Source: Dehalococcoidales bacterium
Lineage (GTDB): Bacteria > Chloroflexota > Dehalococcoidia > Dehalococcoidales > Fen-1064
Direction of reading: 5' to 3'
Assembly: GCA_030654965.1 (NCBI GenBank)
Contig: JAURWL010000051.1
Span: 6,737 to 70,736 of the forward strand
DNA length: 64,000 nt
Positions within the stretch are counted from its first letter, which is position 1; the number at the start of each line of letters is the position of its first letter. Below are positions 1,617 through 57,977 of the stretch, piece after piece. Under the pieces are notes generated by a model. The model saw only the letters and a program-made list of their open reading frames with translations. It searched no databases and was not told the origin of the DNA. The position numbers and the translations under genes were made by a program.

Positions 1617-2075
1617 ATGAAAAGAGTCCTGGTCAATGAACCCGCTTGCATGGGGTGCCATCTCTGCGAGGTGCACTGCCAGCTTCAGCATTCACGTTCC
1701 AGAGACCTGCTCAAAGCCTTCAAGAAGGAATCCCCCAAACCCACCCCCCGTCTCCGTATTGAAGTACGGAAACCGGTCTTCTTCTCGCTTCGCTGTCAAC
1801 AGTGCACGGAACCATCCTGTGTTTCTGCCTGCCTGACTGGCGCCCTCTCCCGCAACCCGGAAACGGGTGTAGTCACCACCGATGAAGACAGGTGCATCGG
1901 ATGCTGGACGTGCATTCTTGCCTGTCCGTATGGTAGTATCCGACAAGATGCCCTGAAACACAAACCTGTGAAATGCGACCTCTGCCAGGGAGCCGAGACG
2001 CCCGCCTGTGTGCTCAACTGCCCTAATGAAGCGCTTACCTGTGAAGAGGTCACTGCTAAGGTTCTGGTCAGATGA
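1617..2075 (+). CDS. 4Fe-4S dicluster ferredoxin-domain protein, first gene of the glutamate synthase operon
   Basis: Cys clusters CMGCHLCEVHC, CQQCTEPSCVSAC, CIGCWTCILACP and CDLCQG..CVLNCP. The stop overlaps the next start (ATGA). Confidence 0.85.
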   Translation: MKRVLVNEPACMGCHLCEVHCQLQHSRSRDLLKAFKKESPKPTPRLRIEVRKPVFFSLRCQQCTEPSCVSACLTGALSRNPETGVVTTDEDRCIGCWTCILACPYGSIRQDALKHKPVKCDLCQGAETPACVLNCPNEALTCEEVTAKVLVR

Positions 2076-2689
2076 TTACAGTTATTGATTATGGCGCTGG
2101 TAATCTGCGTAGTGTGGTCAATGCACTCACGCTACTTGGCTATCCCCACCGGGTGAGCCAGAAACCGGCTGATGTGCTCAGTGCCGATGCTGTTATCTTA
2201 CCCGGAGTCGGTGCTGCCGGCGATACAATGAAGAGCCTGGAAAAACTTTCCCTCATTAAACCAATCAAACAATATATCGCTGAAGGGAGGCCTTTTTTTG
2301 GTATCTGTATCGGACTTCAAGTCCTGCTGACAACCACTGAAGAAGGGGGTAGCCATAAATGTCTGGGTATTATCCCGGGTAAAGTTCGTAAACTAACCCC
2401 CGGGCTCAAAATACCGCACATGGGCTGGAATCAGGTAAAGCAACTCACCGCCCATCCCATCTTCTCGGGTATCCCGGATAACACGAATTTCTATTTCGTG
2501 CACAGCTACTATGCCATTCCAGAGAGCAACACTGCGGTCATCGGCACCACCGATTACGGTATCTCATTCTGCAGTGTTCTGGCACAGGGCAAACTGGTCG
2601 CTACGCAATTTCACCCGGAAAAGAGCGGGGAATGGGGACTGAAGCTATATGATAACTTTCTGAAGATGGCGGGGGAGAACAAGAGATGA
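2072..2689 (+). CDS. hisH: Imidazole glycerol phosphate synthase glutamine amidotransferase subunit HisH
   Basis: HisH hallmarks: GAGNLRSV, GICIGLQ (catalytic Cys), HMGWN, FVHSYY, QFHPEKS. Confidence 0.9.
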   Translation: MITVIDYGAGNLRSVVNALTLLGYPHRVSQKPADVLSADAVILPGVGAAGDTMKSLEKLSLIKPIKQYIAEGRPFFGICIGLQVLLTTTEEGGSHKCLGIIPGKVRKLTPGLKIPHMGWNQVKQLTAHPIFSGIPDNTNFYFVHSYYAIPESNTAVIGTTDYGISFCSVLAQGKLVATQFHPEKSGEWGLKLYDNFLKMAGENKR

Positions 2690-4011
2690 CCGGGACACTG
2701 GACACAAAATATCTCATAATAGGTAATTCCGCCGGTGGTATTGGCGCGGCGGAAGCAATCCGGCAGTTAGACAGGTCCGGCTCCATAACTATTATCTCTG
2801 ATGAGCCTTATCCCGCCTACTCCCGCCCGCTTATTTCCAAATACCTCGCCGGGGAATGCAAAATTGAGAAGATGCTTTTCCGTCCGTCTGATTTCTATGA
2901 GAAAAATTCTATCAGAGCTTTGCCGGGCAGGAAGGCAGTGCAACTTGATACCAAGGGACACACCGTAAAAATTGACGATGGTACAGTCATTGCATGGGAG
3001 CAACTCTTACTTGCCACCGGCGGCTCCCCGATTATTCCACAAATGGAAGGCGGGAACAGTCCTGCTGTCTTTACCTTCACCACGCTGGATGATGCCAGAG
3101 CAATCGACCATTACATAAAGAAGGGAATGCGGGCAGTAGTCATTGGCGGTGGTCTCATCGGCGTGAGTGTCACCGAGGCGCTGGTCAAACGCGGCGTCAG
3201 AGTCACCATTATCGAAATGAAAGACCGCATTCTCAATACGATTCTGGATGAGACAACATCGACGATGGCGACCGCTATTCTGGAAAAACATGGGGTGAAA
3301 ATTATCACCAACCACACAGTCACCGAAATCAACAGTGAATTTACCACCGACCGTATTCACGCCGTTACACTGGATGACAGCCGGGGAATCTCTTGCGAGG
3401 CAGTCATTGTCGCCATCGGTGTGCGACCGCGTTTAGAACTGGCAGCAAGCGCGGGCATCAAAGTCAATCGTGGTATCATCGTTGACCGCACCATGAAAAC
3501 ATCAAAATCGGATATTTATGCATGTGGTGATGCCGCAGAGGCTTATGATTTTATTCAGGGTGAAAACAGGGTCACCCCCATCTGGCCAAATGCCTATCTC
3601 GGCGGGAGGGTAGCCGGCTTTAATATGGCAGGTGTTTCCACAAAATACACCGGCGCTACCTCAATGAACTCGCTCAACTACTTTGGCATGGCAGTCACAT
3701 CCGCTGGCATGGTTATGCCACCCGATAAATCCTATGAAGTTATCAGCCGGCAGAACGAACGGAACTACCGGAAAGTGATTTTAAAAGATGGTTTGCTCAT
3801 CGGGCTAATTTTCTGTGGGGATATTGAGCAATCGGGCATCGTCTATGGCTTAATGAAAGACAGGGTTAATGTGTCCGATTTTAAACAGACGCTGGTCGCC
3901 GACGACTTCAGCTTCGTTTCTCTACCTGAGCCACTCTGGAGAGAGAGGTTAGCAGGTTCATTCAAGCCACAAACGGAGTCCGAACCAATCACCGTGGGGG
4001 TACTGCAATGA
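2686..4011 (+). CDS. FAD/NAD(P)-dependent pyridine nucleotide-disulfide-family oxidoreductase, likely electron input for glutamate synthase
   Basis: Two Rossmann dinucleotide motifs (IIGNSAGGIGAAE and VVIGGGLIGVSVTE) and a CGD motif (YACGDAAE). ATGA overlaps occur at both junctions. Confidence 0.8.
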   Translation: MTGTLDTKYLIIGNSAGGIGAAEAIRQLDRSGSITIISDEPYPAYSRPLISKYLAGECKIEKMLFRPSDFYEKNSIRALPGRKAVQLDTKGHTVKIDDGTVIAWEQLLLATGGSPIIPQMEGGNSPAVFTFTTLDDARAIDHYIKKGMRAVVIGGGLIGVSVTEALVKRGVRVTIIEMKDRILNTILDETTSTMATAILEKHGVKIITNHTVTEINSEFTTDRIHAVTLDDSRGISCEAVIVAIGVRPRLELAASAGIKVNRGIIVDRTMKTSKSDIYACGDAAEAYDFIQGENRVTPIWPNAYLGGRVAGFNMAGVSTKYTGATSMNSLNYFGMAVTSAGMVMPPDKSYEVISRQNERNYRKVILKDGLLIGLIFCGDIEQSGIVYGLMKDRVNVSDFKQTLVADDFSFVSLPEPLWRERLAGSFKPQTESEPITVGVLQ

Positions 4012-5147
4012 AAGACATGAGGAAAGTCAACAATCCGCACAATGATGACAAAGTAATCGATGCCTGCTCCATCTTCGGCGCTATGGACGTCACCGGTCGC
4101 CGATTCTCGGGTAACGGAGTCATCAAAGCTATCACCAATATGCACGACCGTAGTAACGGGTTAGGTGGCGGCTTTGCTGTCTACGGACTGTACCCTGCTT
4201 ATGCTGATTCCTATGCTTTCCACATCATGTACCTCAATGATGCGGCACAGAACCAGACCGAAGCTTTCCTAAAAGAGAATCTCCATATTCTGTATGGTGA
4301 AAAGGTGCCGACAAAGCCGACTGCGGGCATTGTCAACCCGCCGCTCTTCTGGCGTTATTTCGCCGAAGTCGGCAACCATAAACTGGAAGACATCCCTGAT
4401 GATGACTACATCGTCGCGAAGGTAATGCAGATTAATACCACCATTGATGATGTCTTTGTCTTCTCCAGCGGCAAGAACATGGGCGTCTTCAAAGGCGTTG
4501 GCTATCCGGAGCAAATCGCCGCTTATTTCTGCTTGGAACAGTACCAGGGTTATCTCTGGACAGCGCACGGCCGGTTTCCCACGAACACGCCGGGGTGGTG
4601 GGGCGGCGCTCACCCCTTTAGCGTCCTCGATTGGACGGTAGTGCACAATGGTGAAATCTCATCTTACGGCATCAACCGCCGCTGTCTGGAGCAATTCGGC
4701 TACCAGTGTACCATGCAAACCGATACGGAAGTGGTCGCCTATGCCGTCGATTTATTAGTACGCAAACACGGTCTACCCATAGAACTGGTGGCGAAAATCC
4801 TGGCACCGCCCTTCTGGAGCAATATTTCCCGGCAGGCTAACGGACAGAAGGAACTTCTGCTCACACTCCGTCAGGTCTATGGTAGCCTGCTTCTGAACGG
4901 ACCGTTCACCTTTATCATTGCTCATCAGGGGGAGATGATTGGTCTTACCGACCGCATCCGCCTACGCCCGCTCACCGTCGGGGAAAAGGGCAGTATGCTC
5001 TACCTCTCCTCGGAGGAATCAGCCATCCGACTGGTTAGTCCTGACCTTGACCGGGCGTGGACGCCGGTGGGCGGTGAGCCGGTTATCGGCAGGCTGGGCA
5101 AACCACTCCCATCTCAACGTGAATTGGTAATCGCTGGAGTTATGTGA
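4008..5147 (+). CDS. Class-II (Ntn) glutamine amidotransferase domain protein, archaeal-type glutamate synthase domain 1
   Basis: ACSIFG candidate nucleophile Cys, HGRFPTN, and [10 protein letters not shown], a motif typical of GltB/PurF-type amidotransferases. It is a stand-alone ~380 aa protein, as in split glutamate synthases. Confidence 0.85.
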
Positions 5148-5148
5148 A

Positions 5149-5940
5149 ATGCTTACAAAACGTATTATCCCCTGCCTTGATGTAAAAGCCGGGCGGGTCG
5201 TCAAAGGCGTGAAGTTCCGCGACCTCCGTGATGCCGGTGACCCAGTGGAATTAGCCGCTTTTTATAATGAACAAGGCGCCGATGAGCTGGTTTTTTATGA
5301 CATCACCGCTTCCAGTGATGACCGCGCCATCATGCGCGAGGTAGTAGAGCGCACCGCCAACCAGATATTTATTCCTCTCACCGTCGGGGGCGGACTTCGT
5401 ACTGTGGAAGACATGCATCGTATGCTTCAGGTTGGCGCCGATAAGGTCTCGATAAACACCGCCGCGGTTCTGAATCCAAAACTTATTACGGAAGGCGCGC
5501 GACGATTCGGCAGTCAATGCATCGTCTTGGGCATGGATGCCAAGAGAGTTACTGTCTCCAGTCCTGTCCGCTGGGAGGTGTTCACCCACACCGGAGCAGA
5601 CGGCGGACGCGGCACCGGTCTGGACGCAATTGAGTGGGCGCATAAGGCGGTAGAACTGGGCGCGGGCGAGATAGTGGTGAACAGCATTGACGCCGATGGC
5701 ACTCAGGCCGGATACGACCTGGAACTGTTACGGGCTATTTCCGAAAGTGTGACCGTGCCCGTAGTCGCCAGCGGTGGCGCCGGCGCTCCGGATGACCTCT
5801 TTCAGGCGCTCATCACGGGTAAAGCGGACGCCGTGCTTGCCGCCAGCATTTTTCACTACGGCACTTATTCAATTAGAGACGTTAAGAAATTCCTGTTAAA
5901 CAAGGGCATCCCGGTGAGGTTGGAGGTAGGGAAACCGTGA
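5149..5940 (+). CDS. hisF: Imidazole glycerol phosphate synthase cyclase subunit HisF
   Basis: The N-terminus [33 protein letters not shown] and ASGGAG are all classic HisF motifs. Confidence 0.92.
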
Positions 5941-7442
5941 AAATGCTCGTGCCTCCGAAGTTCAGAGTGGTGCGCGATGCGACGCGCTGTATCGGATGTC
6001 AGGTCTGCGTCAACCAGTGCAGTTTTGACGCTCACTATTATGATGCCGAAGACGTCGTCGTATGCAGTCGGGATGAAAACTGTGTCGCCTGCCATCGCTG
6101 TGCCACATTCTGTCCGACGGGCGCTCTGACTATTACCCGTAATCCGCTTGATTACCGTGAGAACCAGAATTGGCATCGCGAGGATATTGAAGACATCTGG
6201 CGGCAAGCAGAGAGCGGCGGCATGTTGCTCACAGGCATGGGTACTGACAAAGGCTACCCTATCTACTGGGACCATCTGCTCCTGAACGCCAGTCAGGTGA
6301 CCAACCCTTCCATCGACCCGCTCCGTGAACCGATGGAGTTGACCACATATCTGGGCAGGAAACCAGATAAGGTTAAAATAAGCCCCGACTCACTAAAACT
6401 TGAAACAGAGATGGCGCCGCAGGTCAGAATTGACGTGCCGGTAATGTTCTCTGCAATGTCCTATGGGGCAGTCAGCCTGAATGTCCACAAATCGCTGGCG
6501 CGCGCCGCCACGGAAATGGGCACGCTCTGGAATACCGGCGAGGGTGGTTTACACCCCAGCCTCTATAAATACGGGAAGAACACAATCGTCCAGGTAGCTT
6601 CGGGGCGGTTTGGCGTACAGCCCAGCTACCTTCATGCGGCGCGTGTCGTTGAAATCAAAATCGGGCAGGGCGCCAAACCGGGTATTGGCGGCCATCTGCC
6701 TGCGGAAAAGGTCAGCGCCGAGGTCTCTATGACACGAATGATTCCCCGGGGCACGGATGCCCTCTCCCCCGCTCCTCAGCACGATATTTATTCGATAGAG
6801 GATTTGACGCAACTCATCTACGCACTGAAAGAAGCGACCAATTACACCAAGCCAATATCGGTAAAAATTGCGGCAGTACATAACTCGGCGGCAATTGCCA
6901 GTGGCATGGTGCGGGCAGGTGCGGACATTATTGTCCTGGATGGGTTGCGGGGCGCTACTGGCGCCGCCCCCAAAGTCATCCGTGACAACGTTGGCATCCC
7001 CATTGAACTGGCACTGGCTTCAGTCGATACCAGATTACGACAGGAAGGCATTCGCAATCAGGCATCGCTGGTTATCTCCGGCGGTATCCGGAACAGCGGT
7101 GATGTCACTAAAGCCATCGCCCTCGGCGCCGATGCGGTCAATATCGGCACAGCGGCGCTCGTCGCGCTCGGCTGTCATGTCTGCCAGCAATGTCACACCG
7201 GGAAATGTGCCTGGGGCATCTGCACCACCGACCTTTCTCTGACACGGCGCATCAATCCCGAAATCGGTGCACGGCGTCTGGCGAATCTCTTGCGCGGCTG
7301 GAGTCTGGAAATCAAGGACATGCTCGGCGGCATGGGTATCAACGCTATCGAAAGTTTGCGCGGCAACCGGCTCCACCTCCGCGGTGTCGGACTGACGGAT
7401 ACGGAATTGGAAATCCTTGGAGTAAGGATGGCGGGGAGTTAA
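5937..7442 (+). CDS. Glutamate synthase FMN-binding/synthase domain protein with N-terminal 2x[4Fe-4S], archaeal-type domain 2
   Basis: [11 protein letters not shown] and [12 protein letters not shown] are followed by a GltS FMN-domain-like core ([42 protein letters not shown]). The GTG start overlaps the hisF stop. Confidence 0.9.
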
Positions 7443-7443
7443 G

Positions 7444-8202
7444 ATGGAAAGAAACAAGACGGCAACACTGGCGACCATTGATGCTACCAGCTTGCACTAC
7501 CGTAATCTCAATGCGCAACTACGCGACCTGGTCGCCGGCGGCACAGAAAAAATTATCATCAACAACGTATATGGCCAGCGGTATATTGGCACGGACTTGA
7601 ATAAGCCGGTCGAAATCGAGATACACGGCACACCAGGCAATGACCTAGGCGCTTTTATGGATGGTCCGACCGTCACCATTTACGGCAATGCCCAGGATGG
7701 CACCGGTAATACTATGAATGATGGCAGAATCATCGTGCACGGGCGCGCGGGCGATATCACCGGACTCTCAGCGCGGGGCGGGGAAATCTATGTCAGAGAC
7801 AGTGTGGGGTACCGCGCCGGCATCCACATGAAGGCATTTGGAGATAAAATGCCAGCGCTTGTTATTGGAAGCACGGCGCAGGATTTTGTCGGCGAGTATA
7901 TGGCGGGTGGTGTCCTTATTCTCCTCGGTATCGGATTGGAAGGAAATCAACATAAAGCCAGCTTCATTGGCACGGGCATGCACGGCGGTGCCATCTACTT
8001 CAGGGGCTCTATCGAAGAACACCAGTTAGGCAAAGAAGTCGGTATCGCAGAACTGAGCGGGGAAGATAGAACTACCTTGACTCGTCTGGTGACAAAATTC
8101 TCCCGCTATTTTAACTGTGATGCGGAAGGTATCCTAAAGGAGAAATTCACCAAACTCTATCCTAAATACCTCCGACCTTACGGTCAACTCTACACCTATT
8201 GA
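7444..8202 (+). CDS. Glutamate synthase GXGXG-domain protein, archaeal-type domain 3
   Basis: Repeated GXGXG-type beta-helix motifs (IHGTPGNDLGAFMDG, IYGNAQDGTGNTMNDG, VHGRAGDITG, GEYMAGG). Confidence 0.88.
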   Translation: MERNKTATLATIDATSLHYRNLNAQLRDLVAGGTEKIIINNVYGQRYIGTDLNKPVEIEIHGTPGNDLGAFMDGPTVTIYGNAQDGTGNTMNDGRIIVHGRAGDITGLSARGGEIYVRDSVGYRAGIHMKAFGDKMPALVIGSTAQDFVGEYMAGGVLILLGIGLEGNQHKASFIGTGMHGGAIYFRGSIEEHQLGKEVGIAELSGEDRTTLTRLVTKFSRYFNCDAEGILKEKFTKLYPKYLRPYGQLYTY

Positions 8203-8870
8203 GGTGCGCTTTGTTTCAGGTTCTACTGGTGGCAAAACCGGGTGGAGAGGCGAGCAAACTGACCGCAGCGCTCAGCCGTAACAACTTTACGTGCAGTATG
8301 GTGGGCAGCGCTGATGACGCCCTACAACAGGTCAACATACGCCTCCCCGACTTATTCCTCCTTGAAGTTGGCAGTATTCCGGAGAGCGAACACCTCTGTC
8401 GGTATCTGCGGGAGGAGAAGAAGCTCCCCGTTCTTGCCATTACCTCAATGGAAACGGCGCTCAATCTCGACGGCACCATCGATGATTTCGTACTCAGTCC
8501 TGTAAACACAGATGAGGTTGTCACCAGAGTAAAACGCCTGCTAAACAAAAAAACGAAAGCCGCCAGCCCGGAACAAATCACCATCGGGAATCTGGTCATT
8601 GATACAATCAAATATGAAGTCTATATCAGTGGCAGACCGGTATCGCTCACCTTCCGTGAATACGAACTCCTCAAATTTCTAGCAACGAACCCCGGTCGGG
8701 TCTTCACCCGGGACGCACTACTGAATGGAGTCTGGGGAGAGGATTTTTTCGGGGGCGACCGCACCGTTGACGTTCACATCCGCAGACTACGCGGCAAAAT
8801 TGATGACCAGACTCACACCTACATTGATACTGTCCGCAATATCGGTTACCGCTTTGTGAAAAAAGCCTGA
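8199..8870 (+). CDS. OmpR/PhoB-family winged-helix regulator with a degenerate receiver domain; start codon uncertain (TTG 8199 or TTG 8211)
   Basis: The C-terminal region (LTFREYELLKFL...VDVHIRRLRGKI...TVRNIGYRF) is a typical OmpR-type wHTH. In a hand alignment to OmpR the N-terminal receiver-like domain lacks the acidic pair, has Glu where the phospho-Asp is expected (DLFLLEV), and has SP instead of KP. Confidence 0.85.
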   Translation: MRCALFQVLLVAKPGGEASKLTAALSRNNFTCSMVGSADDALQQVNIRLPDLFLLEVGSIPESEHLCRYLREEKKLPVLAITSMETALNLDGTIDDFVLSPVNTDEVVTRVKRLLNKKTKAASPEQITIGNLVIDTIKYEVYISGRPVSLTFREYELLKFLATNPGRVFTRDALLNGVWGEDFFGGDRTVDVHIRRLRGKIDDQTHTYIDTVRNIGYRFVKKA

Positions 8871-8880
8871 ACGCCACTCT

Positions 8881-8917
8881 GTAGGCATCTGTAACCGAAC
8901 CGTAATACTGCCGTAAT
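8881..8917 (+). promoter_or_regulatory. Phased direct repeats (GTAGG, GTAAC, GTAAT, GTAAT) upstream of the 122-aa gene; candidate response-regulator operator
   Basis: Pentamers start at 8881, 8891, 8902 and 8913 (spacing 10, 11, 11). They are embedded in a 59-nt block (8889-8947) that matches 9462-9520 at 47 of 59 positions by hand alignment. Confidence 0.55.
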
Positions 8918-8972
8918 AATTCTTCGCTAAAGTAGAGACATCTAAACCAGCAGTAGGATAAGGAGGGCAAAT

Positions 8973-9341
8973 ATGTCATACGATTGGGGACCAAATTTTA
9001 TTGTTCCTTCCGAAACCTTGAAGAAATTTTCCGGCACAGTGAGATTGCGCGAGATGCTTGACGAAGACCTTCTGAAGCAGGAGCTTAAGGAACTGGAACT
9101 GTCTGGTCCTGTTTTAAGAATCACCAATCCGTGGTACTACCGCAAGAAGGGCACCAGCACCTGGATAAAAATTGGCGAATCTGAGGATAAGTCGGAGAAT
9201 TTTGCCGTGCAATGGGACACCAGAAAACTGGCGAATGGGAGATATGAGGTGCTGGGTCTGATGCATGTCTTCGTCAATAGAAGCGGCATGGAATACGCAA
9301 TCGCACGACAGAGCATGGTCGAGGTTTCAGTTAAAAATTAA
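8973..9341 (+). CDS. Hypothetical 122-aa protein of unknown function
   Basis: ATG preceded by AAGGAGG. No recognisable motif. It shares its upstream element with amtB. Confidence 0.6.
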   Translation: MSYDWGPNFIVPSETLKKFSGTVRLREMLDEDLLKQELKELELSGPVLRITNPWYYRKKGTSTWIKIGESEDKSENFAVQWDTRKLANGRYEVLGLMHVFVNRSGMEYAIARQSMVEVSVKN

Positions 9342-9452: not shown

Positions 9453-9490
9453 GTAATTAACCTGTAACATGCCCGTAATACTGACGTAAT
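9453..9490 (+). promoter_or_regulatory. Phased direct repeats (GTAAT, GTAAC, GTAAT, GTAAT) upstream of amtB; candidate response-regulator operator
   Basis: Pentamers start at 9453, 9464, 9475 and 9486, an exact 11-bp period. They are followed by a conserved TAAAGT..AGACATCTAAC block and the RBS. Confidence 0.55.
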
Positions 9491-9536
9491 AATTGCCCGT
9501 TAAAGTGAAGACATCTAACCTGATAGGAGGTGATGG

Positions 9537-10772
9537 ATGTCCATAAACTACGCCGACACTGCCTGGGTATTGATGTCGGCGGCGATGGTCTTATTTATGA
9601 CGCCGGGGCTTGCCTTCTTTTACGGCGGACTGGTGAGACGGAAGAATTTCCTTTCCACCATTATGATGAGCTTCGCCTGCCTGGGTCTGATTGGTGTGCT
9701 CTGGGTAGTCTATGGCTACAGCTTGAGCTTCGGACCTGACAAAGCTGGTATTATTGGCGGGCTGGACTTTTTTGGATTGGCAGGTGTCGGACAAGAACCA
9801 TCATCTGTTTATGCCACCACCATCCCCCACCTCGCCTTTATGACATATCAGGGAATGTTCGCGATTATTACCGTAGCGCTCATTACCGGTGCCGTAGTAG
9901 AACGCATCAAATTCAGCGCCCTCATGCTTTTTTCGGTCTTATGGTTTACCTTTGTCTACACCCCGGTTGCGCACTGGGTCTGGGGAAGCGGCGGCTGGCT
10001 GGCGAAATTGGGCGTGCTCGATTTCGCCGGCGGCACGGTCGTGCATATTGCGGCGGGTATTTCCGCCTTATCACTGGCTCTCTTACTCGGTCCCCGTCGC
10101 GGCTTCAAAGAAAAGGAGCCGATGGAACCGGGTAACATACCGATGGTCGCGCTCGGCGCCGGCATTCTCTGGTTCGGATGGTTTGGTTTCAATGCCGGCA
10201 GTGCCCTGACTTCCGGCGGGTTGGCATCCAGCGCTTTCGTCGCGACGAACATCTCTGCCGCAACGGCCGCCCTGGTCTGGATGATACTATCATGGATTTA
10301 CCGTCGTCCGTCCCTGCTTGGTGTTGCCACCGGCGCCGTGGCAGGGTTGGTAGCAATAACTCCTGCGGCAGGTTTCGTACAGCCGATTATGGGCATACCA
10401 ATCGGCGCTGGCGCTGCCATTCTCTGCTATTATATGATGTTGTTTCGCGCAAAGACCGGGATCGATGAATCACTGGATGTCTGGGCGGTACACGGGATGG
10501 GTGGCACGTGGGGCGCACTGGCAACCGGCATTTTCTCCAGCGTCGCGGTTAATTCTGCCGGGAAAGATGGCCTCATCTACGGCAACCCCAAACAACTTCT
10601 CCTGCAGTTAATCGGCGTTCTTGTTGTCTGGGCATTCGCCTTTATGATGACCTGGGTTATCGGCAAGGTAGTGAATGCGACCATCGGATTACGTGTCAGC
10701 AGTGAAGAGGAATCAGTCGGGTTGGACATCTCACAGCATGGTGAACGCGCCTATGGAGGACCACTGCGATGA
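9537..10772 (+). CDS. amtB: Ammonium transporter AmtB
   Basis: AFFYGGLVRRKN, DFAGGTVVHIAAG, GWFGFNAGSAL and VHGMGGTWGALATGIF. The protein is multi-TM. Confidence 0.95.
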   Translation: MSINYADTAWVLMSAAMVLFMTPGLAFFYGGLVRRKNFLSTIMMSFACLGLIGVLWVVYGYSLSFGPDKAGIIGGLDFFGLAGVGQEPSSVYATTIPHLAFMTYQGMFAIITVALITGAVVERIKFSALMLFSVLWFTFVYTPVAHWVWGSGGWLAKLGVLDFAGGTVVHIAAGISALSLALLLGPRRGFKEKEPMEPGNIPMVALGAGILWFGWFGFNAGSALTSGGLASSAFVATNISAATAALVWMILSWIYRRPSLLGVATGAVAGLVAITPAAGFVQPIMGIPIGAGAAILCYYMMLFRAKTGIDESLDVWAVHGMGGTWGALATGIFSSVAVNSAGKDGLIYGNPKQLLLQLIGVLVVWAFAFMMTWVIGKVVNATIGLRVSSEEESVGLDISQHGERAYGGPLR

Positions 10773-11107
10773 AAAAAATTGAGGCGATAATCCGGGAAGA
10801 AAAACTAGCCCCGGTCAAAAAGTCGCTCGAAGACCTCGGTTACTATGGTATGACCATTACCGAAGTAGGCGGGAGAGGCAGAGAGAAGGGTATCGCTCTA
10901 AAGTGGGGCGCTAAAGAGTATCGCGTCGATTTCCTCCCCAAGCTTAAGGTTGAAGTGATTGTCCTGGATGAAGACCTGTCTCCCGTTTTGAATGCCATTG
11001 TCAGAAGCGCCCGCACCGGTGAGACAGGTGATGGGAAAATTTTCATCATCCCCGTGGAAAATGCAATCCGCATTCGTACTGGCGATTCCGGCAGTAATGC
11101 CGTTTAG
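10769..11107 (+). CDS. glnK: P-II nitrogen regulatory protein, amtB-linked GlnK type
   Basis: 112 aa, MKKIEAIIR..., a T-loop-like GGRGREKG...KEY, and a C-terminal TGETGDGKIFI. The start overlaps the amtB stop. Confidence 0.93.
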   Translation: MKKIEAIIREEKLAPVKKSLEDLGYYGMTITEVGGRGREKGIALKWGAKEYRVDFLPKLKVEVIVLDEDLSPVLNAIVRSARTGETGDGKIFIIPVENAIRIRTGDSGSNAV

Positions 11108-11139
11108 TAATCTGAAAAATGATAAAGGAGGTTATATCA

Positions 11140-12483
11140 ATGCCAGCCAGGAAAAAGGATGAAAGCAAGGAATATGTTCTCAAGATGGCAAAGGAGAATG
11201 ATGTCAAGTTTATCCGCCTGTGGTTTACTGACATCCTCGGTATGCTCAAGAGCTTTGCCATCACCGTCGAGGAACTGGAGGGCGCGCTGGAAGAAGGCAT
11301 GGGATTTGACGGTTCGTCAATCGAAGGGTTCGCACGTATTGACGAAAGCGATATGGTCGCTATGCCCGACCCGGATACTTTCCAGATTCTCCCATGGAGA
11401 CCCCGCGAGCATAATGCCGTCGCCCGGATGTTCTGCGATGTCTTGAAACCCGGTGGTGAACCATTTGATGGCGACCCCCGTTATGTCCTCAAGAAAAACC
11501 TGAAAAAGGCGGCAGACCTGGGCTATACCTATTATGTTGGACCAGAGCTGGAGTATTTCTACTTTAGAGATTCCAAAAGCACAGAGTTTCTTGATGCCGG
11601 CGGCTATTTTGACCTGACCCCACTGGATGCTGCCACAGACATGAGACGTGAAACCGTCCTCACTCTAGAACAAATGGGCATCGGTGTGGAGTATTCCCAT
11701 CATGAGGTCGCCCCCAGCCAGCACGAAATCGATATGCGCTATACAGATGCCCTGACCATGGCAGATAGCGTTATGACCTACCGCCTGGTGGTCAAGCAGG
11801 TTGCCATTAATCATGGTGTCTATGCCACTTTTATGCCCAAGCCTGTCTTCGGTATTAATGGCAGCGGTATGCACGTCCACCAATCGCTTTTCAAGGGCGA
11901 TAAGAACGCCTTTTTCGACCCAAAAGGGAAGTACTATCTATCGAAAATCGCGCGTAGTTATGTCGCCGGTCTATTGAAGTACGCCCCGGAAATCACTGCC
12001 GTTAATAACCAATGGATAAACTCCTACAAACGTCTGGTTCCCGGCTACGAAGCGCCTGTCTATCTATCATGGGCAAAACGCAATCGTAGTGACCTCATCC
12101 GTGTGCCGGAATACCGCCCCGGAAGAGAAAAAGCAACCAGAATCGAACTCCGTTCGCCCGACCCTGCCTGCAATCCATACCTGTGCTTCAGTGTGATGCT
12201 AGCGGCGGGTTTGAAGGGTATTGAGGACGGGCTGGAACCCCCCGAGCCGGTTGAAGAGAACGTCTACGAGATGAATGAAGAGGAACGCGCGAAACGCGGT
12301 ATCCGCACCTTGCCCGCCAGTCTGTCTGAGGCTATCCAGCTAACCGAGAAAAGTAAGCTGGTGCGGGAAGCTCTTGGTGAGCATGTTTTTAGCGCCTTCA
12401 TCACCAACAAGAAGATTGAATGGGACCTCTATCGTACTCAGGTTACCGGGTATGAGGTTAACCGGTACTTGCCAATTCTCTAA
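11140..12483 (+). CDS. glnA: Glutamine synthetase type I
   Basis: DGSSIEGF, MPKPVFGINGSGMHVHQS, NSYKRLVPGYEAP and RIELRSPD. I place the start at ATG 11140, 8 nt after AAGGAGG (11125-11131), rather than at the ORF-track start 11119. Confidence 0.95.
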   Translation: MPARKKDESKEYVLKMAKENDVKFIRLWFTDILGMLKSFAITVEELEGALEEGMGFDGSSIEGFARIDESDMVAMPDPDTFQILPWRPREHNAVARMFCDVLKPGGEPFDGDPRYVLKKNLKKAADLGYTYYVGPELEYFYFRDSKSTEFLDAGGYFDLTPLDAATDMRRETVLTLEQMGIGVEYSHHEVAPSQHEIDMRYTDALTMADSVMTYRLVVKQVAINHGVYATFMPKPVFGINGSGMHVHQSLFKGDKNAFFDPKGKYYLSKIARSYVAGLLKYAPEITAVNNQWINSYKRLVPGYEAPVYLSWAKRNRSDLIRVPEYRPGREKATRIELRSPDPACNPYLCFSVMLAAGLKGIEDGLEPPEPVEENVYEMNEEERAKRGIRTLPASLSEAIQLTEKSKLVREALGEHVFSAFITNKKIEWDLYRTQVTGYEVNRYLPIL

Positions 12484-12519
12484 AGAGGTAGTAATCTGAA
12501 GCTAAAAGGAGGTGGTAAA

Positions 12520-14256
12520 ATGCGCCGCCTGCGGATTGCTATGGCGCAGATTAATACCACCGTCGGCGATTTTGACGGCAATGTAAAAAAGATTCTGGGA
12601 GCCGTTGATACCGCCCGTTCTGCGGGTGCTGATATTGTCACGCTCCCGGAACTTGCCGTTTGCGGTTATCCGCCGGAAGACCTCCTCTTCAAGCCACAAT
12701 TTATCCAGGCAAATCTGGACTCGCTTCAGAAAATCGCTGAGTCCGCAAAGGGCATCACGGTCATCACCGGCTTTGTGGACGCCGATGGCGATATCTATAA
12801 TGCCGCCGCCGTTCTTCACTTCGGCAGAATAGCCGGCTTGTACCGCAAGATTTACCTCCCGAATTACGGCGTCTTCGATGAAAACCGGTATTTCCGCGCA
12901 GGTTCGGACTGCCCCATCTTCGTCATTGGTGGTGTGGCAATCGGCATCACTATCTGTGAAGATATCTGGTATGAAGCTGGACCCGCGACTGTTCAGGCAA
13001 ATGCCGGCGCTGAGGTTATTATTAATATCAGTGCCTCTCCATATCACGCCGGTAAAGGCGCTGCCCGTGAGAGGATGATCGCCACCCGCGCTTCGGATAC
13101 GGTGGCGATATTCGCTTATAATAATGCCGTCGGCGGGCAGGACGAGCTCGTCTTCGATGGTCACAGTGTCATCATGGATGAGAAAGGAATCCTTATTGCT
13201 CGCGGCAAGCAGTTTGAAGAAGACCTGATTATCGCCGACCTCGATGTAGAATCGGTTTTCCGGGCACGCCTGCATGACCCGCGTCAGCGGAAAGAGACCT
13301 TGCTGGCGGAGCAACAGCACTGGCGTCAGACCCGAACCGTCATCTCTGAGACACCGTTCTCCAGCGCCGGACACCCGGCAATAAAACAGCAGGCTGATGT
13401 GCTCGATCTCCCCACTGAAGTCTACCGCGCGCTTGTGCTGGGCACACATGACTACATTTTGAAGAACGACTTTAACAAAGTAGTCATCGGATTATCCGGC
13501 GGGATTGATTCGGCGATAGTGGCGACGATTGCTGTAGATGCACTCGGTAGTGAGAATGTTATTGGGGTATCCATGCCCTCACGCTTCTCATCAGAAGGAA
13601 GCAAAACCGATGCCCAGCGGCTGGCGGAGAACCTGAAAATCAAGCTCCTCACCATCCCCATCGAGAAAGTCTACATGGCATATCTGAACACACTCTCCGA
13701 ATCGTTCACCGGGGCTCAACCCGATATCACTGAAGAGAATATCCAGGCGCGTATCCGGGGTAATCTACTCATGGCGCTATCCAATAAATTCGGATGGTTA
13801 GTGCTCACAACAGGAAACAAAAGTGAAATGGCTACCGGCTATACCACGCTTTACGGTGATATGGTAGGTGGTTTTGCCGTTATCAAAGATGTACCCAAAA
13901 CGCTGGTCTATAAAATTGCCCGGCGCCGTAATCAAATGGCAGGTTATGAATTGATACAGGAATCAATCTTCACCAAACCACCCTCCGCGGAATTGCGTCC
14001 CGACCAGAAAGATATTGACAGCCTGCCACCGTATGAAGTCCTCGACCCTATTCTGACCGCCTACGTGGAAGACGATAAGTCTGTGGAGCAAATCATTGCC
14101 CTGGGGTTTGATAAGGCGACCGCACAGAGGACAGCCAAACTCGTTGACCGTAGTGAGTATAAGCGGAGACAGGCGCCACCGGGAGTAAAAATCACCACCC
14201 GTGCCTTTGGACGGGACAGAAGATTACCTATCGTCAATCGGTTCAAGGAATGGTGA
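12520..14256 (+). CDS. nadE: Glutamine-dependent NAD+ synthetase (CN-hydrolase domain plus PP-loop synthetase domain)
   Basis: The N-terminal nitrilase-like domain has LPELAVCGY and ITICEDIW. The C-terminal domain has the PP-loop GLSGGIDSA. Confidence 0.93.
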   Translation: MRRLRIAMAQINTTVGDFDGNVKKILGAVDTARSAGADIVTLPELAVCGYPPEDLLFKPQFIQANLDSLQKIAESAKGITVITGFVDADGDIYNAAAVLHFGRIAGLYRKIYLPNYGVFDENRYFRAGSDCPIFVIGGVAIGITICEDIWYEAGPATVQANAGAEVIINISASPYHAGKGAARERMIATRASDTVAIFAYNNAVGGQDELVFDGHSVIMDEKGILIARGKQFEEDLIIADLDVESVFRARLHDPRQRKETLLAEQQHWRQTRTVISETPFSSAGHPAIKQQADVLDLPTEVYRALVLGTHDYILKNDFNKVVIGLSGGIDSAIVATIAVDALGSENVIGVSMPSRFSSEGSKTDAQRLAENLKIKLLTIPIEKVYMAYLNTLSESFTGAQPDITEENIQARIRGNLLMALSNKFGWLVLTTGNKSEMATGYTTLYGDMVGGFAVIKDVPKTLVYKIARRRNQMAGYELIQESIFTKPPSAELRPDQKDIDSLPPYEVLDPILTAYVEDDKSVEQIIALGFDKATAQRTAKLVDRSEYKRRQAPPGVKITTRAFGRDRRLPIVNRFKEW

Positions 14257-32490: not shown

Positions 32491-32615
32491 GCTTCCTGGC
32501 AGTGGCATATTTTCCACAAAAGGTTGCCCTCTCAGTATCGTCTGCGCTGAAGCGTTTCACTTCCGTGTTCGGGATGGGAACGGGTGGTGCCACTTCGCCC
32601 AAACCACCAGGAAGC
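32491..32615 (-). rRNA. rrf: 5S ribosomal RNA (ends +/- 5 nt)
   Basis: The reverse complement contains ccacccguucccaucccgaacacggaagugaaacgc and gauacug. The terminal helix is gcuuccuggugg / ccacugccaggaagc. Confidence 0.9.
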
Positions 32616-32968
32616 CTATTTACTTGTTAACAATTTCAGAGGGCTACTTCTTCCCACCTTCCGGTGAGAGTTTATGCCCCATCCGGGTAGATTATGGTCT
32701 CAAAGCTTTTCGCTGATACTTCTATCATACGGCACAAGAGCCTGCTTGCGCAAGAGACCATAAGTTTCGGAGCGCTATAATGGTCTCAATCAAATCTTAT
32801 TGTAGCACACACATGCCAGAACGTAAAGGCTCAAAGCGGAAACCTGAAATCAATTTACGTGGTGAAGTACTTGCTATGTATTAAAGATATAGTACTGCAC
32901 TTATATAGAAAAACCGAGCTTTTCGGCTCAGTTTTTCCAAGGAGGGAGCCAATACCAACTCTGAAACA

Positions 32969-35936
<2,968 letters not shown>

Positions 35937-41345: not shown

Positions 41346-43121
41346 TTAACCGGAGACGACTCTATCTCTGCCTTCCTGCTTAGCTTTGTACAAAGCAGTA
41401 TCCGCCACACGCAGGAGTTCTTCCATCCTAGTACCATTAGCTGGATACGCGGCGACTCCCATAGACACGGTAATGGCGCCAAGTATCTGTCCTTGAAAAA
41501 CTATCTCCATCTTTTTTACTTCTTCCCTCAGGGTATCCGCACGCTTCACTGTATCTTCCCGCGATGATTCGGGGAGAATAACTAGGAATTCCTCTCCTCC
41601 GTACCTGCAGGCAATATCCGACCCTCTGAATTTGTCTTTCAATAGTTTGCCCATTTGACTGATAATCTTATCGCCTGCCGCATGCCCGTAGACGTCATTG
41701 AACTTCTTGAAGTGGTCGAGGTCAGCCATGATGATGCCAATCTGCGCCTGCTTCCTCGCGGCTCGTAAGATTTCACGCTGTAGTGATTCTTCCATAAAGC
41801 GCCTGTTATACAACCCGCTCTGGGGGTCTTGAATAGATTGCATTGAAAGGTTTTCACTCAGCTTTACATTGGCAAGCGAGAGCGATAGGTACTCAGACAG
41901 AGTAACTGCCATTTCTTTCAAGTCTACTATCGCCTGGTCTTGTCCCGATTCTTTGATATTGAAGTCATTCATTAGATGAAGCAATCCCAGAATGTCACCT
42001 TTTGCCATCAGTGGCAGGCACACGTAAGATGATGTCGGTGTGTGCTTCAGGTGCGGGCAGATGGGTTCTATGTTTACATCGTCAACCACATGAGCTCGTC
42101 CGCGTCTTAATCCCCAGCAAGCGTCCGGAGTAAAAATATTGTCGTCTGGATTTGTCGGAAAACCTCCCCATGTGACGATAGATTCGAGGTCCGACCGGGA
42201 ATTACTTAAGAGGAACAAGGCACCTTGTGATGCAGGGAATAATTTTTTCATATAACCCATGATTATAGGAGCAGTTTCTGCCATCTTTGAGCATGCCTGA
42301 AGCATGTCTCTCATTTCCGCCAAGATGACACTCTGCCGGCGCTGACCCTCAAGTTGCTTGACCATTCCGGTTAATTTTTCATTCGCATGGCGCGTTTCTT
42401 CCTGCATCCGTTTACTTTCGGTAATATCCATGAAGTTGCCCAGGGTGGCTCGTTTCCCCTGAGTCCGATATGAAATAACCGTCTCCAATATCCATTTGAT
42501 CTGGCCGGACTTGGTCACTACCCGGTATTCATACGGTTGGCACACCCCGCTTTTCAGTCCATTGACGGCGCTATTTCTAACCAGCTCACGGTCTTCCGGG
42601 TGAATGTAACCCAATGACTTCGTGCTCAATAGTTCATTCATGTTGTAGCCAATTATTCTCTCAAATTGGCGATTAATATATTGGAATATCCCGTCCTGTA
42701 CAATGTAAATACCTATCGGGGAACTCTGCGTTATTGCATCAAATAGCTCTTTTGTTTGCTCCCGTTCAGCCGTATTACGCACGAAAATCACGAAAGCGAT
42801 GACACTACCGGATTCGTCTTTAAGCGGCGAGACTGTAAGCGAGACGTGCACACGGCTGTCGTCTTTTCTCTTGTGGACGGTATCGTAACAAGCGCTCGGC
42901 TCTCCCTGCCTGATTTTTTTAAATACTTCTAATGTATTATCCTTAACATCGAAAGGCACCAGGAAAGAGTGCTCTCTTCCTACAACATCTTCGGCCGAAT
43001 AACCGTAAAGGTCGTGGGCTCCTTTATTCCAATCGGCAATGACGCCATCCACGGTCTCCAAAATGACACCGTTTTCCCACGATTCAAAAACCTGGCTTAA
43101 CTGTTTGATCTCTTTTTCCAT
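41346..43121 (-). CDS. PAS-PAS-GAF-GGDEF diguanylate cyclase
   Basis: Two PAS-like segments, a GAF-like middle region, and a C-terminal GGDEF domain with an intact RYGGEEF active site and DHFKKFND. Confidence 0.9.
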   Translation of the reverse strand: MEKEIKQLSQVFESWENGVILETVDGVIADWNKGAHDLYGYSAEDVVGREHSFLVPFDVKDNTLEVFKKIRQGEPSACYDTVHKRKDDSRVHVSLTVSPLKDESGSVIAFVIFVRNTAEREQTKELFDAITQSSPIGIYIVQDGIFQYINRQFERIIGYNMNELLSTKSLGYIHPEDRELVRNSAVNGLKSGVCQPYEYRVVTKSGQIKWILETVISYRTQGKRATLGNFMDITESKRMQEETRHANEKLTGMVKQLEGQRRQSVILAEMRDMLQACSKMAETAPIIMGYMKKLFPASQGALFLLSNSRSDLESIVTWGGFPTNPDDNIFTPDACWGLRRGRAHVVDDVNIEPICPHLKHTPTSSYVCLPLMAKGDILGLLHLMNDFNIKESGQDQAIVDLKEMAVTLSEYLSLSLANVKLSENLSMQSIQDPQSGLYNRRFMEESLQREILRAARKQAQIGIIMADLDHFKKFNDVYGHAAGDKIISQMGKLLKDKFRGSDIACRYGGEEFLVILPESSREDTVKRADTLREEVKKMEIVFQGQILGAITVSMGVAAYPANGTRMEELLRVADTALYKAKQEGRDRVVSG

Positions 43122-43780: not shown

Positions 43781-43834
43781 GTTGGGGGCGTAGTAAATTT
43801 GTAACCAAAATGTTACATGTTTGTAACGTTATCA

Positions 43835-43863
43835 TTACCAGAGGCAGGAATTGTTAATATTAT
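43835..43863 (+). promoter_or_regulatory. Second promoter candidate upstream of the zinc-ribbon gene, overlapped by phased GTAAC/GTTAC palindromes (43801-43838)
   Basis: TTACCA (43835-43840), a 17-nt spacer, then TATTAT (43858-43863). Pentamers GTAAC, GTTAC, GTAAC and ATTAC start at 43801, 43812, 43823 and 43834. Confidence 0.4.
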
Positions 43864-44022: not shown

Positions 44023-44235
44023 ATGGCGGTCTGGAAGTTGAAGAGTTGCCCTCGCTGCAATGGCGACCTCTTCATTCAGCGTGAAATTGACGGCTGGTAT
44101 GAAGAGTGTTTGCTGTGCGGCTATCAGCGCGATGTGTCCAACATTGTTGCGGCAGACACTGATGGTCAAATCAAAATCAAGGGTCAACTGGCAGATAAGA
44201 GACTGTATACCAACGTTCGCTCTAACGCGAACTGA
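44023..44235 (+). CDS. Small zinc-ribbon protein (70 aa; alternative GTG start at 43948 gives 95 aa)
   Basis: CPRC-(18)-CLLC four-Cys ribbon. The ATG at 44023 is preceded by GGAGGTGG at ideal spacing. Confidence 0.6.
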   Translation: MAVWKLKSCPRCNGDLFIQREIDGWYEECLLCGYQRDVSNIVAADTDGQIKIKGQLADKRLYTNVRSNAN

Positions 44236-57591: not shown

Positions 57592-57683
57592 TGGCGGAGG
57601 GAGTGGGATTCGAACCCACGACCCCGATTTCTCAGGGCAACCGCTTAGCAGGCGGCCGCACTAGGCCACTATGCGATCCCTCC
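57592..57683 (-). tRNA. tRNA-Ser (anticodon GCU), CCA encoded
   Basis: The reverse complement folds with acceptor GGAGGGA/TCCCTCC, anticodon loop CUGCUAA, a long variable arm (characteristic of Ser) and T-loop GGTTCGAATCC. Confidence 0.93.
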
Positions 57684-57898: not shown

Positions 57899-57977
57899 TG
57901 GTCGGGGCGAGTGGATTCGAACCACCGACCTCAGCGTCCCGAACGCTGCGCGCTAAACCAGGCTGCGCTACGCCCCG
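57899..57977 (-). tRNA. tRNA-Pro (anticodon CGG), CCA encoded
   Basis: Acceptor CGGGGCG/CGCCCCG, anticodon stem-loop CAGCG-UUCGGGA-CGCUG, T-loop GGTTCGAATCC. Confidence 0.9.

Follow-up and report, generated by a model that had tools for sequence, protein, structure and literature searches.

The closest described counterpart of the regulator reported here is GlnR of Actinobacteria, an OmpR-type nitrogen regulator whose receiver cannot be phosphorylated and for which there is no partner kinase; its structures comprise the transcription activation complex (TAC) of Mycobacterium tuberculosis GlnR (8HIH) and the DNA-binding domain (DBD) of Saccharopolyspora erythraea GlnR on DNA (8HML, 8HIG) (PMC10235972). 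Here we describe a gene for a protein with the same two-domain plan in Chloroflexota (Dehalococcoidia). It lies on the forward strand at positions 8211-8870 of a 64,000-nucleotide stretch from a Dehalococcoidales bacterium (assembly GCA_030654965.1, contig JAURWL010000051.1, positions 6,737 to 70,736), hereafter the window, and encodes 219 amino acids from a probable TTG start at 8211 to the stop codon at 8868-8870. Sequence comparison and structure prediction together lead us to a probability of about 0.7 that its product is a phosphorylation-independent GlnR-type activator of nitrogen assimilation. Orphan nitrogen activators of the OmpR type that carry a pseudo-receiver are already known as a kind; new here are the lineage, the form of the receiver and the way the genes are arranged, and a full-text literature search returned no paper in which nitrogen genes of Dehalococcoidia or Chloroflexota are tied to GlnR or to an OmpR-type regulator.

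The GlnR box consists of an a-site (gTnAc) and a b-site (GaAAC) with consensus GTAAC, separated by 6-nt spacers and usually amounting to four sites; in S. erythraea GlnR the bases are contacted by R186, V190, R193 and R194 and the phosphates by R169, W177, T187, H191, R196, T209, R211, N212 and Y215 (PMC10235972). On the scaffold of the M. tuberculosis complex, which spans -64 to +13, four protomers are arranged head-to-tail around a poor -35 element, the proximal one lying downstream of it; R167, V168 and F169 touch the beta flap and sigma region 4 of RNA polymerase (RNAP), D182-F183-F184-G185 touch the C-terminal domain of its alpha subunit, and substitution is tolerated least at two residues, one of them His164. 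A charge network of Asp50, Arg52 and Thr9, with Asp50 unphosphorylated, stabilises the GlnR dimer according to a review (PMC10704036).

Two other groups of OmpR-type proteins provide useful comparisons. PhoB of Escherichia coli and PhoP of Mycobacterium and Streptomyces have the same winged-helix fold as our regulator and share conserved residues of the alpha4-beta5-alpha5 interface with it; they differ in scoring lower than GlnR against it in sequence, in needing phosphorylation of an Asp by PhoR, in having an intact pocket and in serving phosphate genes. Their sites are direct repeats in 11-bp phase that stand in for the -35 element and are bound in tandem, head-to-tail, a mode that would apply to our regulator as well. 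PhoB promoters have about 10 bp between the final repeat and the -10 element, much as the arrays described below have 10 nt before a TAnnnT hexamer. A contact with sigma region 4, as in the PhoB/PhoP type (3T72), can likewise be predicted here. The atypical regulators ChxR, HP1043, NblR and RitR also keep the receiver fold without the phosphotransfer residues, and constitutive dimerisation has been proposed or shown for them; they are not close in sequence to our protein (44.8 bits for HP1043, 2hqr, and about 50 bits for the RitR structures), and their regulons are unrelated, none being linked to nitrogen assimilation save for the role of NblR in nutrient stress.

The evidence that carries the comparison with GlnR resides, to begin with, in the DNA-binding half. 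This OmpR/PhoB winged helix (8571-8867, +; residues 121-219) contains the recognition helix RTVDVHIRRLR and a DFFGG motif; it is matched by the Pfam model Trans_reg_C at E=4.5e-28 (residues 145-219), in agreement with an earlier reading of the DNA made without database searches (the sequence-only reading), and Foldseek superimposes it on DBDs in the PDB at a root-mean-square deviation of 1.8 Å. When the single sequence was searched against the PDB the top matches were M. tuberculosis GlnR (8hih_O, 128 bits) and 8hig_A (124.5 bits), and the isolated S. erythraea GlnR DBD (8hml) scored 111.6 bits against at most 79 for other DBD-only chains; a profile of the family raised these figures to 157 and 155 bits for GlnR, and to 139.8 bits for the GlnR DBD alone against at most 110 for the others. 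Identity to GlnR is 51% in the DBD and 35% overall. In the reverse direction, three GlnR queries ranked the Dehalococcoidia family directly after the GlnRs themselves and above 67 other OmpR-type regulators; for the Micrococcus query this held for every family member, whereas the lowest-scoring family members were mixed with one or two canonical regulators (L018, L016) when M. tuberculosis or S. erythraea GlnR was the query. Among the matches listed in the genome scan, the first from outside Chloroflexota was a Micrococcus GlnR. Neighbour-joining trees over all columns recovered a bipartition uniting GlnR with the family in 99/100 bootstraps. A Foldseek comparison of the full-length model with the PDB, tried as a further discriminator, placed GlnR second and was set aside, all full-length OmpR-family regulators scoring alike.

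Retained, too, are all the residues by which GlnR contacts DNA bases and most of those by which it contacts RNAP. In the pairwise alignment every base and phosphate contact of S. erythraea GlnR is identical in our regulator, and the contacts of M. tuberculosis GlnR with RNAP, both the GRVF patch (R167, V168, F169) and the DFFGG motif (D182-F183-F184-G185), are invariant in the family; the position of His164 holds Asn in this regulator and His in the family consensus. We consider that the protein is probably a homologue of GlnR in its DNA-binding half, which goes beyond the functional analogue that had been proposed.

The receiver half (8211-8564, +; residues 1-118) tells a different part of the story. 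It is a pseudo-receiver by definition, in that a modelled (beta-alpha)5 receiver fold is kept and the aligned phosphotransfer residues are missing. The Pfam Response_reg model scores it at 16.5 bits, below its cut-off of 30.2. When positions are read from profile and pairwise hidden Markov model (HMM) alignments to RegX3, MtrA and GlnR, the columns of the acidic pair hold Ala8-Lys9 (8232-8237), that of the phospho-acceptor holds Glu52 (GAA, 8364-8366) and those of the conserved KP hold Ser96-Pro97 (8496-8501, Ser96 being 8496-8498), while Thr78 is retained; the canonical OmpR/PhoB quintet of DD, D, T/S and K thus reads AK, E, T and S. The replacements that the sequence-only reading had seen in a hand alignment are accordingly borne out, with neither an Asp at the acceptor nor an acidic pair, and the AlphaFold2 (AF2) model, built from 112 sequences, keeps beta1 to alpha5 intact at a predicted local distance difference test (pLDDT) score of 87.1 and sets Glu52 at the C-terminus of beta3.

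Variation within the family indicates what has been preserved. Among 112 close relatives the acidic pair occurs in none, the acceptor column holds E in 97, D in 12, S in 2 and G in 1, the Lys column K in 61 and S in 27, and the Thr column T in 52, V in 26 and A in 25; more distant Chloroflexota relatives (L001-L014) carry E, D or A at the acceptor, or Arg in the case of L006. The contrast between the family and canonical regulators is sharp, since the next-nearest proteins, which come from other phyla (L016-L019), have the D...D...T...KP pattern intact. On the other hand, Asp92, Phe93, Glu102 and Arg106 are invariant in the 112 sequences and Asp91 is present in 110/112, and these five fall on the positions that in PhoB-type regulators supply the salt bridges of the alpha4-beta5-alpha5 dimer. 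Because these interface residues are conserved while the pocket is lost, the receiver half has apparently been kept as a structural and oligomerisation module rather than as a phospho-switch.

The suggestion that Glu serves as a phosphomimic does not hold in general. Glu is the commonest substitute for the acceptor Asp among pseudo-receivers, and the partner proposed for a phosphomimetic Glu is the Lys (PMC12632262), the position that here is Ser96; since Asp, Ala, Ser and Gly are tolerated at the acceptor and Ser stands at the Lys position in this protein, no family-wide phosphomimic rule can be derived, although such a role is possible for the subgroup that combines Glu, Thr and Lys. The description of the receiver as more degenerate than that of GlnR stands for the active-site residues and fails for the overall sequence, which is far nearer to canonical receivers than the receiver of GlnR is. 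Half of the Dehalococcoidia family also retains the beta5 Lys that GlnR is without, and the conserved Asp50 of GlnR is replaced by Glu here and by Asp or Ala in relatives. As to the cysteines of this domain, the conserved Cys63 was entertained as a redox sensor and rejected, the same Cys being present in RegX3, MtrA and GlnR; Cys28 (codon 8292-8294, in beta2) is found in 104/112 relatives and is absent from RegX3 and MtrA.

The genomic setting links the regulator to nitrogen. Its homologues, for which more than 100 protein clusters were listed, are nearly all of 211-222 aa and come from metagenome-assembled genomes of Dehalococcoidales and other Dehalococcoidia, which fits the guess of a lineage different from Actinobacteria; their database names are generic or, for some entries at JGI, PhoP. 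At 13/14 Chloroflexota reference loci among the matches listed the regulator gene stands directly 5' of amtB-glnK-glnA(-nadE) or glnA, as it likewise does at L081, L084 and L085, and its own 5' neighbour is usually glutamate synthase (GOGAT) or hisHF. In the window the predicted target operon (9537-14256, +) comprises amtB (9537-10772), glnK/P-II (10769-11107; P-II by Pfam), glnA (11119-12483) and nadE (12520-14256), with gaps between genes of at most 36 nt. The regulator does not face this operon, as had been stated: it lies upstream on the same strand, with an open reading frame (ORF) for a 122-aa protein (8973-9341) between. The targets predicted from synteny and promoter motifs, amtB-glnK and glnA, are in common with those of GlnR; unlike that of GlnR, our gene closes a glutamate synthase operon and sits directly 5' of its predicted targets. 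At L001 (6001-11592), amtB-glnK-glnA-nadE are 76-88% identical to the genes of the window and the regulator is only 51% identical, and because of this disparity partial recombination or transfer of the cluster is suggested there.

As the sequence-only reading had stated, the window contains no histidine kinase gene: none was found among its ORFs of at least 180 aa nor by regular expressions for the H-box and G-box, and no adjoining histidine kinase was present at 17/18 related loci (L002-L014, L081, L084-L086). The remaining locus, L001, has a canonical histidine kinase/response regulator pair (2610-4798) just 5' of its GlnR-like gene, which we judged unrelated. The sole obvious signalling protein in the window is one of 591 aa (41346-43121, -) with a C-terminal GGEEF motif typical of diguanylate cyclases and an N-terminal part that, judged by eye, resembles sensory domains of the PAS/GAF type.

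The two intergenic regions flagged in the sequence-only reading (8881-8947 and 9453-9520) share an element at 81% identity, and each contains what appears to be a promoter. The promoter of the ORF at 8973 (8891-8933, +) reads GTAAC-n6-GTAAT-n6-GTAAT (8891-8917), followed after 10 nt by TAAAGT (8928-8933), and is conserved in L084 and L085; that of amtB (9453-9506, +) reads GTAAT-n6-GTAAC-n6-GTAAT-n6-GTAAT (9453-9490), again followed after 10 nt by TAAAGT (9501-9506). The repeat pattern matches three times in the window against 0.14 expected; four-site arrays matching at least 19/20 positions number one in the 64 kb (the amtB promoter) against 0.03 expected, and three-site arrays three against 0 expected. 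Across the window and 12 related loci we count 14 arrays of four pentamers in 11-bp phase that match 19-20 of 20 positions and have TAnnnT exactly 10 nt on, with spacer sequences that differ among them. Of these, 11 occupy the stretch directly between the regulator gene and amtB, and the other three, of which L009 has two and L084 one, are found farther downstream, just before amtB; in L009 two tandem copies of amtB each have their own four-repeat array (10672-10709 and 12040-12077) with TAnnnT. The array of L012 reads GTAAC-TTAAC-GAAAT-GAAAC with TAGACT, L085 shows both window-type promoters in the three-site scan, and L004 and L007, which have no amtB downstream, have no array.

This is the layout of the GlnR box, with the same GTAAC-like pentamers, 6-nt spacing and three to four copies, and the arrays are candidate binding sites for the regulator. 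If TAnnnT is the -10 element, the pentamers of the amtB promoter would be centred near -58, -47, -36 and -25, the proximal copy falling 3' of the -35 position; by analogy, this is the geometry of the M. tuberculosis GlnR-TAC, and a sigma-70 scan of the amtB promoter found no usable -35 element to go with TAAAGT. At both window promoters a block (A/G)(G/A)AGACATCTAA stands directly 3' of the putative -10 (8934-8947, 9507-9520); it or close variants of it occur in the amtB promoters of L001, L084 and L085 and are absent from more distant relatives, and it could represent a transcript start region or a second site. A search with Rfam turned up no RNA element, riboswitches included, around the gln genes.

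Taken together, the PDB matches, the reciprocal ranking, the synteny and the repeat arrays point to the GlnR-like orphan nitrogen regulator that had been proposed from the DNA letters, and a mechanism can be put forward by which it might act. The pseudo-receiver would oligomerise without phosphorylation and three or four protomers would bind head-to-tail to GTAAC/GTAAT pentamers 11 bp apart, which span roughly -60 to -23 of the two -35-less promoters (8891-8933 and 9453-9506). Once bound, the protomers would recruit or stabilise RNAP by contacts with sigma region 4, with the beta flap and with the alpha subunit, in the manner of the M. tuberculosis GlnR complex, with the pseudo-receiver serving as a module for oligomerisation and for bridging to RNAP, and the promoters of the ORF at 8973 and of amtB-glnK-glnA-nadE would thereby be activated. 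Production of the regulator from the same transcript as glutamate synthase would tie its amount to that operon, and the nitrogen signal could come from GlnK/P-II, from a metabolite, or from modification at Ser/Thr or Lys of the kind known for GlnR of Streptomyces.

How Dehalococcoidia regulate nitrogen is almost uncharted; the group abounds in the subsurface and in the sea, and organohalide respirers belong to it. If our reading is true, a regulator, a DNA motif and part of a regulon, the 122-aa protein included, can be named for a whole bacterial class, the GlnR mode of activation extends past Actinobacteria, and the conserved Asp network of GlnR is dispensable for it; since Glu pseudo-receivers are common and the proposed mechanism is a known one, the finding is useful more than it is surprising. 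A bolder extension, which we regard as doubtful, would hold that GlnR-type regulation is an older system of Terrabacteria or was transferred between phyla, that the locus forms a single circuit in which the regulator ends the GOGAT operon and adjoins its targets and GlnK, that the pseudo-receiver senses nitrogen (e.g., through GlnK/P-II or 2-oxoglutarate/glutamine) and that the 122-aa beta-sandwich protein is a new partner or effector; were it true, the locus would offer a simple system for identifying the input signal of GlnR.

Several observations weigh against assigning the protein to the GlnR type, and some of them concern the receiver. The similarity to GlnR is confined, as far as sequence comparison goes, to the DNA-binding half: the Pfam model of the GlnR receiver, GlnR_1st (PF21695), scores our protein at 16.6 bits, under its cut-off of 27 (in 22 relatives it matched just 9 at E<0.1), and a receiver profile of the family gives the GlnR receivers 8-10 bits, the lowest of 99 regulators, against 45-63 for canonical receivers. 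The Asp50/Arg52/Thr9 network is also absent, its places being taken by Glu52, Gly54 (T, G, S or N in the family) and Ala8-Lys9. Because the receiver halves are dissimilar and this network is missing, the pseudo-receivers of GlnR and of the family may have degenerated independently, and shared loss of canonical residues may have inflated the 99% bootstrap value, which falls to 30/60 (50%) when the tree is restricted to DBD columns. Within the DBD itself the margin is modest, the family profile giving GlnRs 124-130 bits and other OmpR-type regulators up to 116, and the comparison set (L016-L080) was picked by similarity to the query and is not a balanced sample of the OmpR family. The recognition helix is also identical in E. 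coli PhoB and therefore does not by itself prove specificity for GTAAC. The region upstream of the GOGAT operon (1427-1616 in the window, and likewise in L086) has no repeat array, so that autoregulation is not indicated. Finally, binding, activation and the response to nitrogen are all steps that we infer.

The rival that survives best accepts the same protein and the same sites and turns the sign around: the array would overlap the core promoter, and the regulator would block RNAP when nitrogen is sufficient. What speaks for it, and against activation, is that a sigma-70 scan reads GTAACA-18-AATAAT at 9464-9493 (9/12 matches), inside the repeat array, which would place the repeats over the core promoter and so imply repression. 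Actinobacterial GlnR is in fact a repressor of some targets, e.g. ald and citA (PMC10704036). The AATAAT hexamer is, however, confined to the closest relatives of the window, whereas the last repeat, the 10 nt and TAnnnT are kept in 14/14 arrays across divergent loci without a usable -35 element, and the layout matches that of the GlnR-TAC amtB promoter. The pho boxes of PhoB likewise lie 10 bp upstream of the -10. Repression is on these grounds an unlikely, though not a negligible, alternative to the activator that we favour.

A kinase encoded elsewhere in the genome, of which our view is limited to 64 kb, could in principle phosphorylate the protein at a non-canonical residue, or weakly at the Glu/Asp, and make an ordinary response regulator of it. 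About 11% of close relatives do have the acceptor Asp and about half retain the Lys, and phosphotransfer sometimes survives a substitution at DD, T or K (PMC12632262). Against this stand the acidic pair, which no family member has, the acceptor column with its Glu, Asp, Ala, Ser and Gly, the Response_reg score under the Pfam cut-off, the 17/18 loci without an adjoining kinase and the intact pattern of the nearest canonical relatives, L016-L019, all of which make this alternative very improbable. It is just as hard to credit a PhoB/PhoP-type phosphate regulator that merely happens to lie near nitrogen genes and binds pho-box-like repeats, since PhoB is the best NCBIfam model (139.6 bits) yet far under its cut-off of 296, the names given by JGI, the shared recognition helix of E. 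coli PhoB and the competition of Streptomyces PhoP and GlnR for overlapping sites (PMC10704036) are set against 139.8 bits for the DBD of GlnR and 96 for PhoB in the PDB search, the phosphorylation pocket is absent, and the related loci show synteny with amtB, glnA or GOGAT nearly everywhere and with pst/pho genes never.

The start of the gene deserves comment in view of its bearing on the operon. The longest ORF for the regulator runs from TTG 8199 to 8870 (+), whereas the true start is probably TTG 8211, because the homologues, typically of 219 aa with an N-terminus MFQ(V/I)LL, begin there in the alignment and a Shine-Dalgarno sequence GAGGTG (8201-8206) precedes it. The overlap claimed with the stop codon of the last glutamate synthase gene, the GXGXG subunit (8200-8202), exists as a 4-nt overlap if TTG 8199 is used and gives way to an 8-nt gap for the probable start. 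The claim of eight junctions, all overlaps or 1-nt gaps, needs correction, eight genes having seven junctions; at two of these the genes are 1 nt apart, and at five, counting the one next to the regulator, they overlap by 4 nt, this one becoming the 8-nt gap if translation starts at 8211.

The seven tightly packed upstream genes (1617-8202, +) are probably co-transcribed with the regulator and encode, in order, a ferredoxin, a HisH-like glutamine amidotransferase (GATase), a FAD/NAD (pyridine-nucleotide) oxidoreductase, the GOGAT GATase_2 subunit, HisF, the GOGAT FMN/Fe-S subunit and the GOGAT GXGXG subunit. The hisH-like class I GATase gene (2072-2689, +) and hisF (5149-5940, +; His_biosynth 271 bits) lie here in among the subunit genes of a split glutamate synthase of the archaeal type; at L010-L013 a hisH-hisF pair stands directly 5' of the regulator gene instead. 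Directly 5' of the operon and divergent from it lies an rve-integrase (transposase-like) gene (278-1426, -), and the spacer between the two (1453-1510) contains a direct repeat GGTAAC..TGAGTCAAT in two copies 35 nt apart; an insertion may have displaced the native promoter of the GOGAT operon.

The 122-aa protein (8973-9341, +) is conserved and, with a repeat-array promoter of its own, is a predicted member of the regulon. It has no Pfam match and no sequence match in the PDB, and its 1091 homologues are all unnamed or 'hypothetical' except for two that carry an unrelated channel annotation. Identity is at least 65% over more than 100 clusters; some relatives have a 28-aa insertion, and a few such variants of 150 aa fall to 49-57%. 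The AF2 model (pLDDT 83) shows an Ig-like beta-sandwich whose N-terminus is disordered and whose fold matches in the PDB are only weak, and in L003, L008, L011, L084 and L085 the gene again adjoins the regulator gene or gln genes.

Elsewhere in the window, GTAAC and GTTAC alternate in 11-bp phase at 43790-43838, in an array that reads similarly on both strands and lies about 190 nt 5' of a small ORF (about 44023-44235) for a Cys-rich, zinc-ribbon-like protein; because this array has no TAnnnT at +10, it is probably the site of a different regulator. Rfam places 23S and 5S rRNA genes at 32494-35936 (-), with no 16S gene beside them, and tRNA genes at 57595-57683 and 57902-57977 (-).

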